Made by a program: the position numbers and the translations under genes. From the NCBI RefSeq assembly GCF_054482525.1, contig NZ_CM137006.1: DNA of 64,000 nucleotides; one strand, written 5' to 3'. Positions 14,036-55,520 of this stretch are shown here, in pieces. The notes below the pieces were generated by a model. It had not been told where the DNA came from, searched no databases, and worked only from the letters and a program-made list of their open reading frames with translations. How positions within the stretch are numbered: position 1 is the first letter of the stretch; the number at the start of each line of letters is the position of its first letter.

Positions 14036-14058
14036 AAAAATCCCGCAGCGCGGGCTTA
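14036..14058 (-). terminator. Intrinsic terminator downstream of the toxin-like gene
   Basis: Minus strand reads aagCCCGCgctGCGGGattttttg. Confidence 0.5.
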
Positions 14059-14601
14059 TTCCTTCCATTTATCAGAAAAAAGATCTTCTTCTAAAGGCAT
14101 TGGTTCTGTTTTTGTTTTCTCAAAGAATTGATAACTGATAGTGATTGCTGCCTCTTTAAACTCTTCTTGCTCAGTTATGTTGTGGGCATCTGCGTCAACA
14201 AAAAACATAACCAGCGCATCACGATTGTGATTTACCGAATAAACTAAAAAGCAATTACTTGTTGGTATGCATTTTACTTGCACAGACGCTATTTTTTTCC
14301 ATGCATCCCAAGATGATTTTTTACCAGTGTGTTTTTTATCACTATCTTCTGGAATATAGTCTTGGTTATCGACATGAGTATGCCTGACATTTAGTTTAAG
14401 CATTTCTGTCGGACGAGCAAATGCAGCATCTTTACCAAGAGATGGATGGTATCCCGTTTTCCAATACTGGGTAAAGGCATCAGATACTTTCTTCAGCTCA
14501 AGATCAGATGCACAAAGGGCCGAGAAATTTTGCGTATGCAATACTCGACCCTTATATCTGACAATTTGATTTTTATCATTCTGCGACGCAGACGAACTCA
14601 T
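14056..14601 (-). CDS. Hypothetical toxin-like accessory protein, 181 aa (tentative resemblance to YafO-family toxins; unverified)
   Basis: Track ORF 14056..14628; ATG at 14601 with AAGGAA Shine-Dalgarno. AT-rich, opposite strand to virion genes. Motifs YHPSLGKDAAFARP and VRHTHV recalled as YafO-like, from memory only. Confidence 0.5.
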   Translation of the reverse strand: MSSSASQNDKNQIVRYKGRVLHTQNFSALCASDLELKKVSDAFTQYWKTGYHPSLGKDAAFARPTEMLKLNVRHTHVDNQDYIPEDSDKKHTGKKSSWDAWKKIASVQVKCIPTSNCFLVYSVNHNRDALVMFFVDADAHNITEQEEFKEAAITISYQFFEKTKTEPMPLEEDLFSDKWKE

Positions 14602-14755
14602 AATTTTCCTTATTGTTACGAGAATCAAAGAAAGCGCGGGATACGCGACTTGCGTGATCTTTTGTCATAGTAACTTTTACGCACTCTACGCTTCCATTGA
14701 AAGAACGTCTTGCGGCAGCTTGCGCTCTACGCATCTGCAATTTTTCGTTTCGCAT
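14576..14755 (-). CDS. Small basic ORF, 59 aa, overlapping the start of the toxin-like gene (candidate antitoxin/regulator)
   Basis: Hand translation: MRNEKLQMRRAQAAARRSFNGSVECVKVTMTKDHASRVSRAFFDSRNNKENYEFVCVAE. GAGGT Shine-Dalgarno 6 nt upstream; 26-nt overlap with the downstream gene. Not in ORF track (<60 aa). Confidence 0.25.
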   Translation of the reverse strand: MRNEKLQMRRAQAAARRSFNGSVECVKVTMTKDHASRVSRAFFDSRNNKENYEFVCVAE

Positions 14756-14902
14756 GACATTACCTCATATCTCATAAGTTCATTACACGGATTAATAAAA
14801 ATGAAACCAATCCGTTTACCCTTGAGGTAATAGTACGCTATTCACCCACAGTCTGCAATCTGTACAGAATTATTTAAAGGCACATCCCTGTGCCGCCGCC
14901 CG

Positions 14903-15598
14903 TCAGAAGAACCCTGCCTTGTCGTTGATGTACTCCGCGTGCGTCTGGATATCACGCAGGCATTTGCTCACACCGACGATGTAGCAGAACATGGTGGTCA
15001 GCTCCGCCGCCGCGCCCGATACGTCGTGCCCGTCGTCCTGTAACTGGTTCAGCAGATTCATCAGCAGTGAGTTCTCCGTCAGGCCGAGAACACCAGACGG
15101 CGAATGAATCAGGCTGCGGTAGCCGGGCTTCAGTGGGGCACTGTAGGTTTTGTTCTCTATCTTCATCGCCTGCATCACTGCTGATGCTGTGGCGTTGGCT
15201 ACCTGGTCGGCAACCATCTTTATGCGCTCTTCCTGCGGGAGCGAGTTTTTAATGTAACTTCCGGTGCGGCGGATCTGAGGAAGAACCTCACCTGTAACCC
15301 ATTTACGAAAGCGGTATGGGATAGTGCCTGGTGTCACTGCGTCGCGGCAGCGGAGGATCAGTGTGTAGAGGCCTGACTCGGAGATGATGATCGATTCTTG
15401 CTCACCGCCAGGGGTGTCGGTTGAAGCGACGCCCTTCTCATCATCATCAAGTTTTCGAACAGCATCTCGATGGTTTGCTATGCCTATAGCCCGACAAACA
15501 TCTGAAGCGATAAACCATGGCTCACCATTAATGACGATTACTCGTATATCGGCTTGGGATTCGAAAGAAAAAATGGACGTGCTTTTTGTAGCTGTCAT
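14903..15598 (-). CDS. Bro-N (KilA-N-like) domain protein, antirepressor-like, 231 aa
   Basis: N-terminal pattern F.F...IRV....GEPWF.A.DVC...G......A...LDDDEK...T.GG.Q...ISESGLY.LI.R......FR.WVT.EVLP.IRRTG matches Bro-N; AAAAGG Shine-Dalgarno. Confidence 0.7.
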   Translation of the reverse strand: MTATKSTSIFSFESQADIRVIVINGEPWFIASDVCRAIGIANHRDAVRKLDDDEKGVASTDTPGGEQESIIISESGLYTLILRCRDAVTPGTIPYRFRKWVTGEVLPQIRRTGSYIKNSLPQEERIKMVADQVANATASAVMQAMKIENKTYSAPLKPGYRSLIHSPSGVLGLTENSLLMNLLNQLQDDGHDVSGAAAELTTMFCYIVGVSKCLRDIQTHAEYINDKAGFF

Positions 15599-15913
15599 AG
15601 TGGTTACCTTTTAGTCTGGTTAATCACCACTACCGACGCCAATCGGTTGGTGGTGAGCTGTGCAGGGTTGGCGTAACCGGCTAAAAGGACCCGGCGCACC
15701 TTTCGGTGCCCCCACACAGCCCACCATAATACGAATGTGGCCGTGCTATACGCATAAAAAAACCGCTTGCGCGGTGAATGCGCCTTTTAGTAATCCGGGA
15801 CGCCAATCCCGGCACTGGATTTTGCCAGTGCCCGATTACTATGGCACAAGAGGAGTGCGATGTAAATTTACCGCAAAGGTAAATATAAGCACTTCATTTG
15901 GTAATTGCAAACC

Positions 15914-16171
15914 TTATCTGGTTTGTTTTCGTAATTGTTCGGCACAATAGTCGAGATGTGTTTGCAGATCCTGCATAGACATCTGTGAGCTGGTGACGTA
16001 GTTAATCAGTGCAGTCAGTTCGGCAAGTGGGCCATCGACATTAAATCCATCCTTATCTAGATCCCGGAGTAATTTCATCAAGTGCGATCCCTCCACCAGT
16101 GACTTGACGCCTCCCGGCGTGTGAATCCTTTCGGTAAATCCGTCTTCCAGTGGATAGTGATACTGCTGCAT
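15914..16171 (-). CDS. Small protein, 85 aa, paralog of the C-terminal domain of the adjacent Bro-N protein
   Basis: HTPGGVKSLVEGSHLMKLLRDLDKDGFNVDGPLAELTAL...LQTHLDY aligns with HSPSGVLGLTENSLLMNLLNQLQDDGHDVSGAAAELTTM...IQTHAEY of the 231-aa protein. Second ATG (16171) has a GGAG Shine-Dalgarno; track start is 16186. Confidence 0.55.
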   Translation of the reverse strand: MQQYHYPLEDGFTERIHTPGGVKSLVEGSHLMKLLRDLDKDGFNVDGPLAELTALINYVTSSQMSMQDLQTHLDYCAEQLRKQTR

Positions 16172-16193
16172 CTTAATCTTCTCCATGCAATAA

Positions 16194-16209
16194 CTGTATA
16201 TTTATACAG
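16194..16209 (-). promoter_or_regulatory. LexA (SOS) box upstream of the 85-90 aa gene / Bro-N gene pair
   Basis: CTGTATATTTATACAG fits CTGT-N8-ACAG with an AT-rich centre; TTGATA -35-like hexamer abuts it on the coding strand. Confidence 0.65.
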
Positions 16210-16367
16210 TATCAAATAATTTGTTTGCTATCCAGCACGTTTTGCAAATTACCTAAAAGGTAATATCTATTTATATTCACAGTATTTCTATCCATATGTG
16301 GTTTTTCAGGTAATAGAATAACCAGATATGCGGCGCAACGGGTGCTGCGACTATCTGGAGATTTAAC

Positions 16368-33779: not shown

Positions 33780-34481
33780 CTGAACACACCGGCACAGCTC
33801 TCTTTGCCACTTTATCTTCCTGACGACGAAACCTTTGCAAGTTTCTGGCCGGGGGATAACTCCTCTTTACTGGCCGCGCTGCAAAACGTGCTGCGTCAGG
33901 AACATAGCGGTTACATCTATCTCTGGGCACGCGAAGGCGCGGGGCGCAGCCATCTGCTGCACGCGGCTTGCGCGGAATTGTCGCAGCGTGGCGATGCGGT
34001 GGGCTATGTCCCGCTGGATAAACGCACCTGGTTTGTTCCGGAAGTGCTCGACGGTATGGAGCATTTGTCGCTGGTCTGTATCGACAACATTGAGTGTATT
34101 GCAGGCGATGAGTTGTGGGAGATGGCGATTTTCGATCTCTACAATCGAATTCTGGAATCGGGTAAAACACGGTTGTTGATCACCGGCGATCGTCCACCGC
34201 GGCAGTTGAATCTGGGATTACCGGATCTCGCGTCGCGTCTCGACTGGGGGCAGATCTACAAATTGCAGCCACTTTCTGATGAAGATAAGTTGCAGGCGCT
34301 ACAGTTACGCGCGCGTTTGCGTGGTTTTGAACTGCCGGAAGATGTGGGGCGTTTCTTGCTGAAGCGGCTCGACAGAGAAATGCGCACGCTATTTATGACG
34401 TTGGATCAGTTGGATCGTGCGTCGATTACCGCGCAACGTAAGCTGACCATTCCGTTTGTGAAAGAAATTCTGAAATTGTAG
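33780..34481 (+). CDS. hda: DnaA regulatory inactivator Hda
   Basis: Track ORF 33735..34481 (248 aa); the functional 233-aa protein is recalled to start at a CTG, corresponding to 33780. Confidence 0.85.
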
Positions 34482-54805: not shown

Positions 54806-55520
54806 GTGCACAGAAAACCCCCAGCTAGGCTGGGGGTTCCGGAAAGCTTTCAGCTTTAAGCCAGTTATTAAAACCCCTTTTGATTTGTTAAAACACCTTG
54901 CGGTCTGGCAACTGCAAGTGTCAAACAAGAAATCAAAAGGGGGTCCCAATGGGGAACGAAAAGAGCTTAGCGCACACCCGATGGAACTGTAAATATCACA
55001 TAGTTTTTGCGCCAAAATACCGAAGACAGGTGTTCTACAGAGAGAAGCGTAGAGCAATAGGCAGTATTTTGAGAAAGCTGTGTGAGTGGAAAAGTGTACG
55101 GATTCTGGAAGCTGAATGCTGTGCAGATCATATCCATATGCTTGTGGAGATCCCGCCCAAAATGAGCGTATCCGGCTTTATGGGATATCTGAAAGGGAAA
55201 AGCAGTCTGATGCTTTACGAGCAGTTTGGTGATTTGAAATTCAAATACAGGAACAGGGAGTTCTGGTGCAGAGGGTACTACGTCGATACGGTGGGTAAGA
55301 ACACGGCGAAGATACAGGATTACATAAAGCACCAGCTTGAAGAGGATAAAATGGGAGAGCAGTTATCGATTCCCTATCCGGGCAGCCCGTTTACGGGCCG
55401 TAAGTAACGAAGTTGGATGCAAATGTCAGATCGTGTGCGCCTGTTAGGGCGCGGCTGGTAAGAGAGCCTTATAGGCGCATTTGAAAAACCTCCGGCTATG
55501 CCGGAGGATATTTATTCTGA
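54806..55520 (+). mobile_element. IS200-family insertion sequence (IS200/IS605 family), absent at this locus in K-12
   Basis: ~0.7 kb element with left-end hairpin CCCCCAGCtaggCTGGGGG, single tnpA, right-end hairpin CCTCCGGCtatgCCGGAGG; no terminal inverted repeats. Ends approximate to about 30 bp. Confidence 0.7.
54949..55407 (+). CDS. tnpA: IS200 transposase TnpA (HUH Y1 transposase), 152 aa
   Basis: MGNEKSLAHTRWNCKYHIVFAPKYRRQ...AECCADHIHMLVEIPPK is near-identical to recalled Salmonella IS200 TnpA. Confidence 0.9.
   Translation: MGNEKSLAHTRWNCKYHIVFAPKYRRQVFYREKRRAIGSILRKLCEWKSVRILEAECCADHIHMLVEIPPKMSVSGFMGYLKGKSSLMLYEQFGDLKFKYRNREFWCRGYYVDTVGKNTAKIQDYIKHQLEEDKMGEQLSIPYPGSPFTGRK

Follow-up and report, generated by a model that had tools for sequence, protein, structure and literature searches.

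The 315-bp interval 15599-15913 lies between two minus-strand open reading frames (ORFs), of 231 aa (15598->14903) and 90 aa (16186->15914), in the window, that is, the whole 64,000-nt stretch of DNA analyzed here. On the minus strand, this gap holds two catalogued small phage RNAs, IsrK and C4, together with a predicted repressor-binding site (Table 1), and the three most likely act together to keep the prophage antirepressor gene silent. With high confidence, the gap can be described as an RNA control cassette of the P1 immI type for the downstream gene ant, read on the minus strand. The initial annotation, made from the sequence alone, had offered a small structured RNA, a processing or attenuation site, or a protein-binding site as possible contents, and each of these options proved apt for a part of the gap. 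Two structured RNAs are present, both above their Rfam gathering scores. The CCGC..GCGG hairpin with its U-run is the leaky terminator of IsrK, and C4 is an RNA that is excised by RNase P in P1/P7. Finally, the palindrome ATTTACC-N5-GGTAAAT at 15866-15884 is a predicted site of the epsilon15 lysogeny-repressor operator type.

The structural basis of this assignment is visible in the repeats and folding of the gap. Every inverted repeat noted initially is present at its position and was recovered by an independent repeat search. The search also returned two direct repeats that were absent from the initial annotation, GACGCCAATC at 15635 and 15799 and CCTTTTAGT at 15607 and 15783, and the complements of both lie inside the long stem-loop. 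The description of the gap as hairpin-dense is borne out, with folding that beats shuffles at a z of about -6. As minus-strand RNA, the 315 nt fold at -130.7 kcal/mol, compared with -97.8 kcal/mol (sd 5.3) for dinucleotide shuffles (z -6.2, 0/100 as good), and the plus-strand fold gives a z of -6.9 (0/100 as good). Since the z is about -6 to -7 on both strands, the strand is set by the Rfam matches, the U-run and the target sites. The gap had also been called GC-rich, which does not hold for the interval as a whole (50.8% GC vs. 50.5% in the whole window). Only C4 is GC-rich, at 60% for its segment and 66% for the predicted mature RNA, while the promoter/operator part has 39%. A tRNA had been considered and rejected, in agreement with ARAGORN, which reports 0 tRNA or tmRNA genes in 15400-16100. 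Three points are missing from the earlier description, namely the minus strand, the twice-occurring targets that complement the C4 loops, and the prior cataloguing of the family.

A covariance-model scan against Rfam, one of the checks suggested initially, identified IsrK and C4 on the minus strand and, together with the comparison of relatives, settled the identity of the gap. With default settings, the scan of the window gives isrK and C4 within the gap. A permissive scan adds c4-a1b1 (RF03163) at 15844->15792, overlapping the 5' half of isrK, and finds no match to Rfam families other than these three. The c4-a1b1 match scores 45.1 bits, 1.6 below the gathering score of 46.7. At the same bases, relatives score 32.7-50.5 bits, P1 51.0 and Gifsy-1 48.1, and both c4-a1b1 hairpins and the a1 loop are present in the window despite the sub-threshold score.

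Table 1. Features of the gap and of the adjoining genes, in coordinates of the window; arrows give the reading direction on the minus strand.
Feature	Position	Strand	Description
O1	16249 (16249-16263)		TTACC-N5-GGTAA upstream of the small ant gene
SOS-type box	16194-16209		CTGT-N8-ACAG, upstream of the 90-aa gene
Small 90-aa antirepressor gene	15914-16186	minus	PDB 5D50 chain E (Salmonella phage SPC32H), E 1.3e-46
Operator O2	15866..15884		ATTTACC-TTTGC-GGTAAAT; palindrome overlapping the -35 of the IsrK promoter; predicted Rep-binding site
O2 core copy	15868		TTACC-N5-GGTAA on the -35 of the IsrK promoter
IsrK promoter (sigma-70-like)	15838..15866	minus	-35 TTTACA (15866->15861), 17-nt spacer, TGn-extended -10 TGcCATAGT (15846->15838)
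IsrK sRNA (a1/b1 leader)	15831->15756	minus	Rfam isrK RF01394, 77.9 bits vs. gathering 50, model match 1-77
Inverted repeat	15811-15832		GGCACTGGattttgCCAGTGCC
IsrK hairpin 1	15831->15812	minus	Loop GCAAAAUC; the GGCACTGG/CCAGTGCC of the initial annotation
IsrK hairpin 2	15811->15796	minus	Loop holds a1 UUGGCGU (15806->15800)
b1	15790->15783	minus	CUAAAAGG, in the IsrK linker
IsrK intrinsic terminator	15775->15756	minus	ACCGCgcaaGCGGU + U7; terminator scan; the CCGC/GCGG + U-run of the initial annotation
Inverted repeat	15763-15774		CCGCttgcGCGG; A7 before it on the plus strand is the U-run 3' of the stem on the minus strand
C4 antisense RNA	15731->15646	minus	Rfam RF01695, 79.2 bits vs. gathering 45, E 1e-15, full-length model match 1-87
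Predicted mature C4, 77 nt	15725->15649	minus	Ends transferred by alignment from the annotated mature P1 C4
Long-range complement	15649-15662 / 15715-15726		ggtggtgagctgtg / cacagcccacca
Inverted repeat	15696-15709		GCACCtttcGGTGC
b'	15688->15681	minus	CCUUUUAG, loop of C4 hairpin 2
a'	15674->15668	minus	ACGCCAA, single strand 3' of C4 hairpin 2
Target a2	15634..15645	minus	UUGGCGU (15642->15636), loop of a short hairpin directly 3' of C4
Target b2	15596..15614	minus	CUAAAAGG (15614->15607), overlaps the ant Shine-Dalgarno AAGG
ant, 231-aa antirepressor	14903..15598	minus	BRO-N domain + SPC32H-Ant-like C-terminal domain
O3	14816		TTACC-N5-GGTAA upstream of a gene named YafO-family toxin by RefSeq

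The IsrK-C4 core of the gap matches 307 phage records, and 20 diverse ones were compared (phiV10, Tyrion, two Klebsiella phages, Stx1/Stx2, phiP27, 2H10, APSE-1, APSE-7, an Actinobacillus phage and others). In all 20 loci, the order is isrK, 21-27 nt, C4, 45-60 nt, and the start of an ant- or rha-type gene, and both P1 and Gifsy-1 share the isrK-C4 tandem upstream of a gene start. In the window, 47 nt separate C4 from the ant AUG, with no icd-like gene between them. The GCACC/GGTGC repeat of the initial annotation corresponds to hairpin 1 of C4, and its long-range complement to the 17-bp closing stem. This long stem around two hairpins, present in the C4 of the window, is backed by covariation. 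The C4 helices comprise 27 pairs across the 20 loci, with 99.4% of cells paired, and 11 pairs carry compensatory change, the outcome that the suggested comparison with related prophages had been meant to look for. None of 500 shuffles does as well, and in slid controls only 35-50% of cells are paired. IsrK hairpins 1 and 2 also stay paired through two-sided changes in the 20 loci.

C4 is linked to both of its neighbors by short complementary sites. Target a2 is an exact 7-nt complement of a' and part of a 10-nt exact direct repeat of the a1 region. Target b2 is complementary to the loop of C4 hairpin 2 over 8 nt without mismatch and is part of a 9-nt direct repeat of the b1 region, and the Shine-Dalgarno sequence that it overlaps ends 8 nt before the ant AUG (15598->15596). 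The bipartite motif TTGGCGT-N(5-35)-CTAAAAGG occurs in 3 copies in 64 kb, compared with 0.01 expected, and these copies are found only at IsrK, the ant leader, and the complement of C4 itself. The 21 loci compared carry 18 distinct b' loops and 10 distinct a' stretches. Thus, a' and b' vary between phages, yet both target copies at each locus match them, at fixed positions, and P1 and Gifsy-1 follow the same matching rule. This three-way covariation was quantified in 19 non-redundant loci as the position-restricted complementary run, counting Watson-Crick and G-U pairs, with 20,000 permutations. The mean run was 8.5 for cognate and 4.9 for non-cognate combinations at b1, 9.5 and 5.8 at b2, 6.9 and 4.4 at a1, and 7.0 and 4.3 at a2, and for each of the four sites 0/20,000 permutations reach the cognate mean.

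Energy-based calculations on whole molecules were less informative. In a matrix of whole-RNA duplex energies (C4 loop vs. full IsrK or leader), cognate duplexes were stronger on average, and the locus's own C4 was preferred in only 7-11 of 21 cases. This matrix discriminates poorly because GC-rich stems give spurious duplexes, hence the position-restricted permutation test. Cofolding C4 with either the leader or IsrK in RNAcofold returned no a/b pairing, a null result that is expected and uninformative because loop-loop contacts fall outside the model of RNAcofold, and the pairing is thus without thermodynamic support here. The duplexes in the window are short, at 7 + 8 bp, compared with 7 + 7-11 bp in P1.

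The cassette has its own transcription signals. The promoter scan predicts that IsrK starts at the G at 15831. A promoter match of at least 8/12 precedes the isrK model at 22 of the 23 homologous loci, Gifsy-1 and P1 among them, and the distance from the end of the -10 to the first isrK-model base is 6 nt in 22/23 loci and 8 nt in PhiR26_1. The terminator of IsrK, with a 5-bp stem followed by U7, has an energy of -8.1 kcal/mol, and a 24-nt spacer separates it from C4. For IsrK, binding to Hfq is suggested by the family's name. Terminator hairpins are weak at all homologous loci, ranging from -7.6 to -11 kcal/mol, with -2.5 kcal/mol in P1.

The operator motif TTACC-N5-GGTAA is present in 3 perfect copies in 64 kb, all of which fall in this module. 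Allowing one mismatch gives 9 matches in 64 kb vs. 1.0 expected, a count reached by 0/100 shuffles. O2 keeps its place, though not its central bases, in phiV10, Tyrion and two Klebsiella phages. The epsilon15 record carries five annotated "repressor (lysogeny)" sites, all reading ATTACC-N5-GGTAAT, of which three adjoin the gene of the HTH repressor and one precedes the small ant gene. Because these annotated sites read alike, O2 is predicted to be an operator, most likely that of the main repressor of the prophage. The prophage repressor gene lies outside the 64-kb window.

Both genes that border the gap had been described as antirepressor-module genes, and the searches agree. The 231-aa protein matches PHROG 130, "anti-repressor Ant" (E 2e-62), and is named "BRO-N domain-containing protein" in RefSeq. 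Its residues 150-226 match PDB 5D50 chain E, "Anti-repressor protein" (E 1.9e-13), which is also the match of the 90-aa protein, and the latter shares 42% identity with the C-terminal domain of the former. The 90-aa gene is a small antirepressor of the SPC32H type, with control by LexA and Rep predicted from its upstream sites. The count of CTGT-N8-ACAG in the window alone is not significant (2 vs. 0.69 expected, with 18/100 shuffles reaching 2), and the SOS-type box is credited because it occupies the same place in epsilon15, phiV10 and Tyrion. The window contains an epsilon15/phiV10-like (Uetakevirus) E. coli prophage in which this region lies between a virion structural gene and the tailspike gene and is 95-98% identical to vB_EcoP_ZX5 and phiV10. 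Since epsilon15, which belongs to the same genus, has the small ant gene without the IsrK-C4-ant cassette, the cassette is a module added in the phiV10 branch. A related cassette occurs in 834 of 5,426 complete E. coli genomes, 335 of which hold at least 80% of the window version.

The closest known system is immI of P1 and P7 (c4-icd-ant; NC_005856), which has the same order of operator (a predicted one in the window), promoter, a1, b1, C4, a2, b2 and antirepressor. As in the window, b' of P1 lies in the hairpin-2 loop, a' in the single strand that follows, and b2 over the Shine-Dalgarno sequence, and the C4 RNAs share their fold and a predicted size of 77 nt. The P1 record places the C1 operator Oc4/Op51 at the c4 promoter, which O2 would mirror. 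In P1, the C4 precursor is cut, as in P7, and its 5' end is made by RNase P, according to Hartmann (1995) as cited in PMC11143913. P1 C4 is described as pairing with a2/b2 and blocking the ribosome-binding site (Citron & Schuster, 1990). The two systems also differ. P1 has icd between C4 and ant, and because the window has no icd gene, b2 lies directly on the ant Shine-Dalgarno sequence. The leader of the window ends in a real terminator hairpin (-8.1 vs. -2.5 kcal/mol in P1), so that IsrK should exist as an RNA of its own. Specificity sequences differ, the operator is predicted to be of the Rep type in the window and is of the C1 type in P1, and the cassette is hosted by an epsilon15-like podovirus in the window and by a plasmid prophage in P1. 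These differences are variations within a known kind, and the element fits without difficulty into families already catalogued.

Late-region podovirus modules under antisense-RNA control are also known from P22, whose immI (ant, arc, mnt, sar RNA) resembles the window in lying beside the tailspike gene. In P22, sar is read from the strand opposite to ant and crosses the ribosome-binding site of that gene, whereas C4 of the window lies on the same strand and has short loop complements, and the window is without homologues of arc or mnt. The Rep-Ant system of SPN1S/SPC32H (PDB 5D50) resembles the neighboring 90-aa gene, the SOS-type box and the putative Rep operator, not the gap itself. In APSE phages (PMC7313666) and Stx phage F039 (LC710660), "isrK" and "C4 antisense" are annotated in tandem upstream of a BRO-N gene, as here. 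The APSE annotation names a' and b' opposite to P1. The APSE paper discusses the two RNAs separately, regards IsrK as a virulence sRNA without relation to C4, and makes no remark on the second target copy within IsrK (PMC7313666).

A further relative is the isrK-orf45-anrP region of Gifsy-1 (PMC4825925), where isrK scores 79.3 bits compared with 77.9 in the window. Both have the same a' (ACGCCAA), the same a1/a2 (UUGGCGU), a leaky terminator and a downstream antirepressor. The b' specificity differs, as does the upstream neighbor, which is antQ in Gifsy-1 and the small antirepressor in the window. The ORF of Gifsy-1 encodes 45 aa and its stop overlaps the anrP start, whereas the corresponding ORF of the window, from an AUG within C4, encodes 35 aa and leaves 24 nt between its stop and the ant AUG. 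The window lacks translational coupling of the orf45 type, which belongs to the mechanism as published and does not define the RNA family.

Homology with P1/P7 and Gifsy-1 suggests that C4 of the window is processed and represses translation of ant, and that IsrK has an activating effect. The operator-overlapped sigma-70 promoter would drive the 76-nt leader IsrK, which ends at the weak intrinsic terminator, and read-through transcripts would extend through the C4 sequence to ant. C4, about 77 nt long, stable and tightly folded, would be cut out of the read-through transcript, as in P1/P7, and its b' loop and a' single strand would pair with b2 and a2 and block ribosome binding on ant, so that Ant would not be made in the quiescent prophage or on superinfection by a phage of the same type. 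As long as the repressor holds the promoter in check, the stable C4 may suffice to cover the few ant leaders made. Both sites are duplicated in IsrK, as a1 and b1, and IsrK would therefore compete for C4. On loss of the repressor, for example once the SOS response has induced the small Ant, terminated IsrK in abundance could titrate C4 and allow the large Ant to be made. Resident C4 would also silence ant of a superinfecting phage with the same a'/b' type. The stoichiometric "decoy" logic for IsrK is our own proposal and the weakest step of this scheme. The window has no coupled ORF of the icd or orf45 type, and therefore the details of P1 and Gifsy-1 cannot be transferred unchanged.

The same scheme can be laid over the published data for Gifsy-1. 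In that prophage, IsrK supplied in trans raises translation of anrP 139-fold and transcription 8-fold, and mutants at G28, G31, C159 and C162 de-repress anrP, with the a' mutants strongly de-repressed (484 and 926 vs. 4 for the wild type; PMC4825925). The orf45 sequence is conserved in its nucleotides and not in its amino acids, and the region yields the processed stable RNA STnc1160 (PMC4825925), which, like IsrK, is highly transcribed in Gifsy-1 lysogens under all conditions tested (PMC7067206). In the Gifsy-1 record (NC_010392), this orf45/STnc1160 part of the isrK-anrP interval scores 69.0 bits as C4. Counted from the IsrK 5' end, the first AUG of orf45 (A107) is the AUG at C4 nucleotides 5-7, G28 and G31 map to a1, and C159 and C162 map to a'. 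The mutant data fit a three-partner model in part. PMC4825925 makes no mention of P1, immI or Citron, a 2025 review has IsrK and c4 as separate entries, and Rfam clan CL00128 holds C4 and c4-a1b1 while isrK (RF01394) is in no clan. A full-text search found no paper with both "IsrK" and "bacteriophage P1", and the searchable literature does not state that IsrK is an a1/b1 leader or that the orf45 region of Gifsy-1 is C4. Whether IsrK is the terminated a1/b1 leader of a P1-type immI, the Gifsy-1 orf45/STnc1160 region the C4 repressor RNA, and IsrK an anti-antisense decoy that titrates C4 is, as a combined claim, evenly balanced in our judgment.

The activating step of IsrK has been explained differently for Gifsy-1, where a switch in cis was proposed. 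According to this proposal, the middle of IsrK pairs with the C4 region within the read-through transcript and silences the mRNA without any free, trans-acting C4; short IsrK in trans then opens the fold, and a small ORF that starts at the AUG within C4 is coupled to the downstream gene. For the window, we regard this as possible though rather unlikely. The proposal draws on native gels, in vitro binding and mutant fusions in Gifsy-1 (Hershko-Shalev, 2016, PMC4825925). Its AUG, at C4 nucleotides 5-7, is present in 23/23 loci, yet the ORF that follows is not conserved, ranging from 14 aa to an in-frame fusion among the 23 loci, with a stop from -95 to +1 relative to the start of the next gene or absent. 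As the ORF of the window stops 24 nt before the ant AUG, the overlapping stop/start coupling of Gifsy-1 is absent. The Gifsy-1 double mutants bear on both readings. Restoring a1:a' complementarity lowers expression, and the a1+a' double mutants are 2-3 times below the a' mutants (224 vs. 484; 327 vs. 926), which is the direction predicted by the cis structural model and not by a pure decoy, and the cis model is therefore kept as a live rival for the IsrK step. On the other side, the double mutants are still 56-82 fold above the wild type (224 and 327 vs. 4), as expected if a2 remains mismatched. A cis switch needs a1 and b1 only, yet a2 and b2 are conserved and co-vary with a'/b' just as strongly. 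STnc1160 is a processed stable RNA from a region that scores 69 bits as C4, and the minimum-energy fold of the read-through transcript of the window leaves the IsrK hairpins and C4 intact.

Two further readings deny the RNAs a role altogether. The gap could be an intergenic insulator, made up of the terminator of the upstream small-ant transcript and an operator, with the RNA-like structures as functionless, decaying remnants. A terminator-like hairpin and a predicted operator are indeed present, and the phiV10 record marks the terminator alone. This reading is very improbable, as both RNAs lie far above their gathering thresholds without broken pairs, all four target sites are perfect complements, the window version is 99% conserved in many E. 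coli genomes, at least 80% of it being present in 335, and the terminator follows its own promoter rather than standing right behind the upstream gene. Scarcely credible is a small protein encoded by the gap, even though orf34 of VT2-Sakai and ORF29/30 of the Actinobacillus phage cover the homologous bases, as do long "antirepressor" or "regulator" CDSs in phiP27, 2H10, ASU11 and Stx1_499, and orf45-SPA was detected in Gifsy-1 under over-expression of IsrK (PMC4825925). ORF length, frame and stop position are not conserved, in keeping with the initial remark that the gap has no convincing ORF, and substitutions keep base pairs, not codons. RefSeq calls no CDS in the gap, and an NCBIfam search of three nearby proteins found no match.

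The P1-immI-type RNA cassette is already a known kind, as the annotated tandems of the APSE phages and F039 illustrate, and the link to Gifsy-1 is a by-product of its analysis. The cassette matters mainly as annotation, since the gap is bare of features in RefSeq and, but for the terminator, in the phiV10 record, and several other phage records place spurious CDSs over the homologous bases. It also marks a second, RNA-silenced antirepressor, which could influence prophage induction and superinfection immunity. The P1 c4 and Gifsy-1 IsrK paradigms appear to describe one module, and this recognition would make IsrK easier to interpret and point to direct experiments. If the identification of IsrK as a C4-titrating leader is true, the prophage of the window would have an RNA-level commitment switch atop LexA/Rep control of two paralogous antirepressors, and the a'/b' combinations would constitute an RNA immunity code that decides cross-talk among co-resident prophages.

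In Gifsy-1 (NC_010392), positions 34131-34316 on the minus strand score 69 bits against the Rfam C4 model, and this stretch corresponds to the published 'orf45/STnc1160', located between isrK and anrP. The published Gifsy-1 mutant positions G28/G31 fall within a1, a target copy inside IsrK, while C159/C162 fall within a', a complementary sequence of C4. No connection between IsrK and the P1 c4 system was found in the searchable literature. Comparison across papers is complicated by labeling, as the APSE records (APSE-7, LR794146, 2141-2165) assign a' to the hairpin loop and b' to the single strand that follows, whereas the P1 annotation is the reverse, which sets a trap for the reader. Additionally, CDSs are drawn across the IsrK/C4 bases in several GenBank records of homologous phage loci (L007, L010, L013, L015, L017, L018, and L019). 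These include VT2-Sakai orf34 and ORF29/30 of an Actinobacillus phage, as well as, in PhiR49_2, phiP27, 2H10, ASU11, and Stx1_499, long genes named 'antirepressor' or 'transcriptional regulator'; such calls are probably over-extended or spurious.

The gap holds further sequence features (see table). GUGGUGA, just 3' of the target copy a2, is the exact complement of UCACCAC, the 3' stem strand of C4. Pairing of the two could give the transcript, before it is processed, an alternative helix; most loci keep a GGUGGUGA-like word at this position. The loop of IsrK hairpin 1, which has no complementarity to C4, is also conserved: most loci carry GCAAAAUC, a second group has UUAUAAAGC, and the P1 version is GCAAAUUC. 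A 14-nt inverted repeat would enclose both IsrK hairpins and cover the 5' end of the target copy b1. This repeat can pair only in transcripts whose start lies upstream of the IsrK promoter, namely those reading through from the small antirepressor gene. Elsewhere in the window, a match to STnc490, an Hfq-binding sRNA, falls beyond the prophage module and has no relation to the IsrK-C4 finding.

Features of the window discussed here
Feature	Position	Description
190-aa ORF	within 14056-14755	RefSeq name YafO-family toxin
59-aa ORF	14576-14755	uncalled; overlaps 190-aa ORF
O3	14816-14830	predicted third perfect operator; downstream of ant, upstream of 190-aa ORF
231-aa antirepressor (ant)	14903-15598	
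C4 stem complement	15624-15630 with 15650-15656	
Inverted repeat	15788-15801 with 15828-15841	86% complementary
IsrK hairpin 1	15812-15831	
Small antirepressor (90 aa)	15914-16186	
CTGTATATTTATACAG box	16194-16209	putative, SOS/LexA type; upstream of 90-aa gene
O1	16249-16263	predicted Rep-type operator; upstream of 90-aa gene
STnc490	54816-54939 (+)	Rfam match, 146 bits

In epsilon15 (1594-1890), a terminator and convergent structural genes come immediately after the small antirepressor gene, and the IsrK-C4-ant cassette is missing; the cassette therefore behaves as an insertable module. The 231-aa antirepressor consists of a BRO-N domain fused to a second, C-terminal domain, and because the latter is 42% identical to the small antirepressor, the two genes flanking the gap are paralogues. 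Beyond ant, the YafO-family ORF may be a repressor-controlled toxin without an evident antitoxin; the overlapping 59-aa ORF has no family match.

The 90-aa gene encodes a close homologue of the crystallized SPC32H antirepressor (5D50_E), and the CTGTATATTTATACAG box is kept in epsilon15, phiV10, and Tyrion. Because this putative box and O1 lie upstream of the 5D50_E homologue, the prophage would possess two antirepressors, a small one under SOS control and a large one under RNA control.
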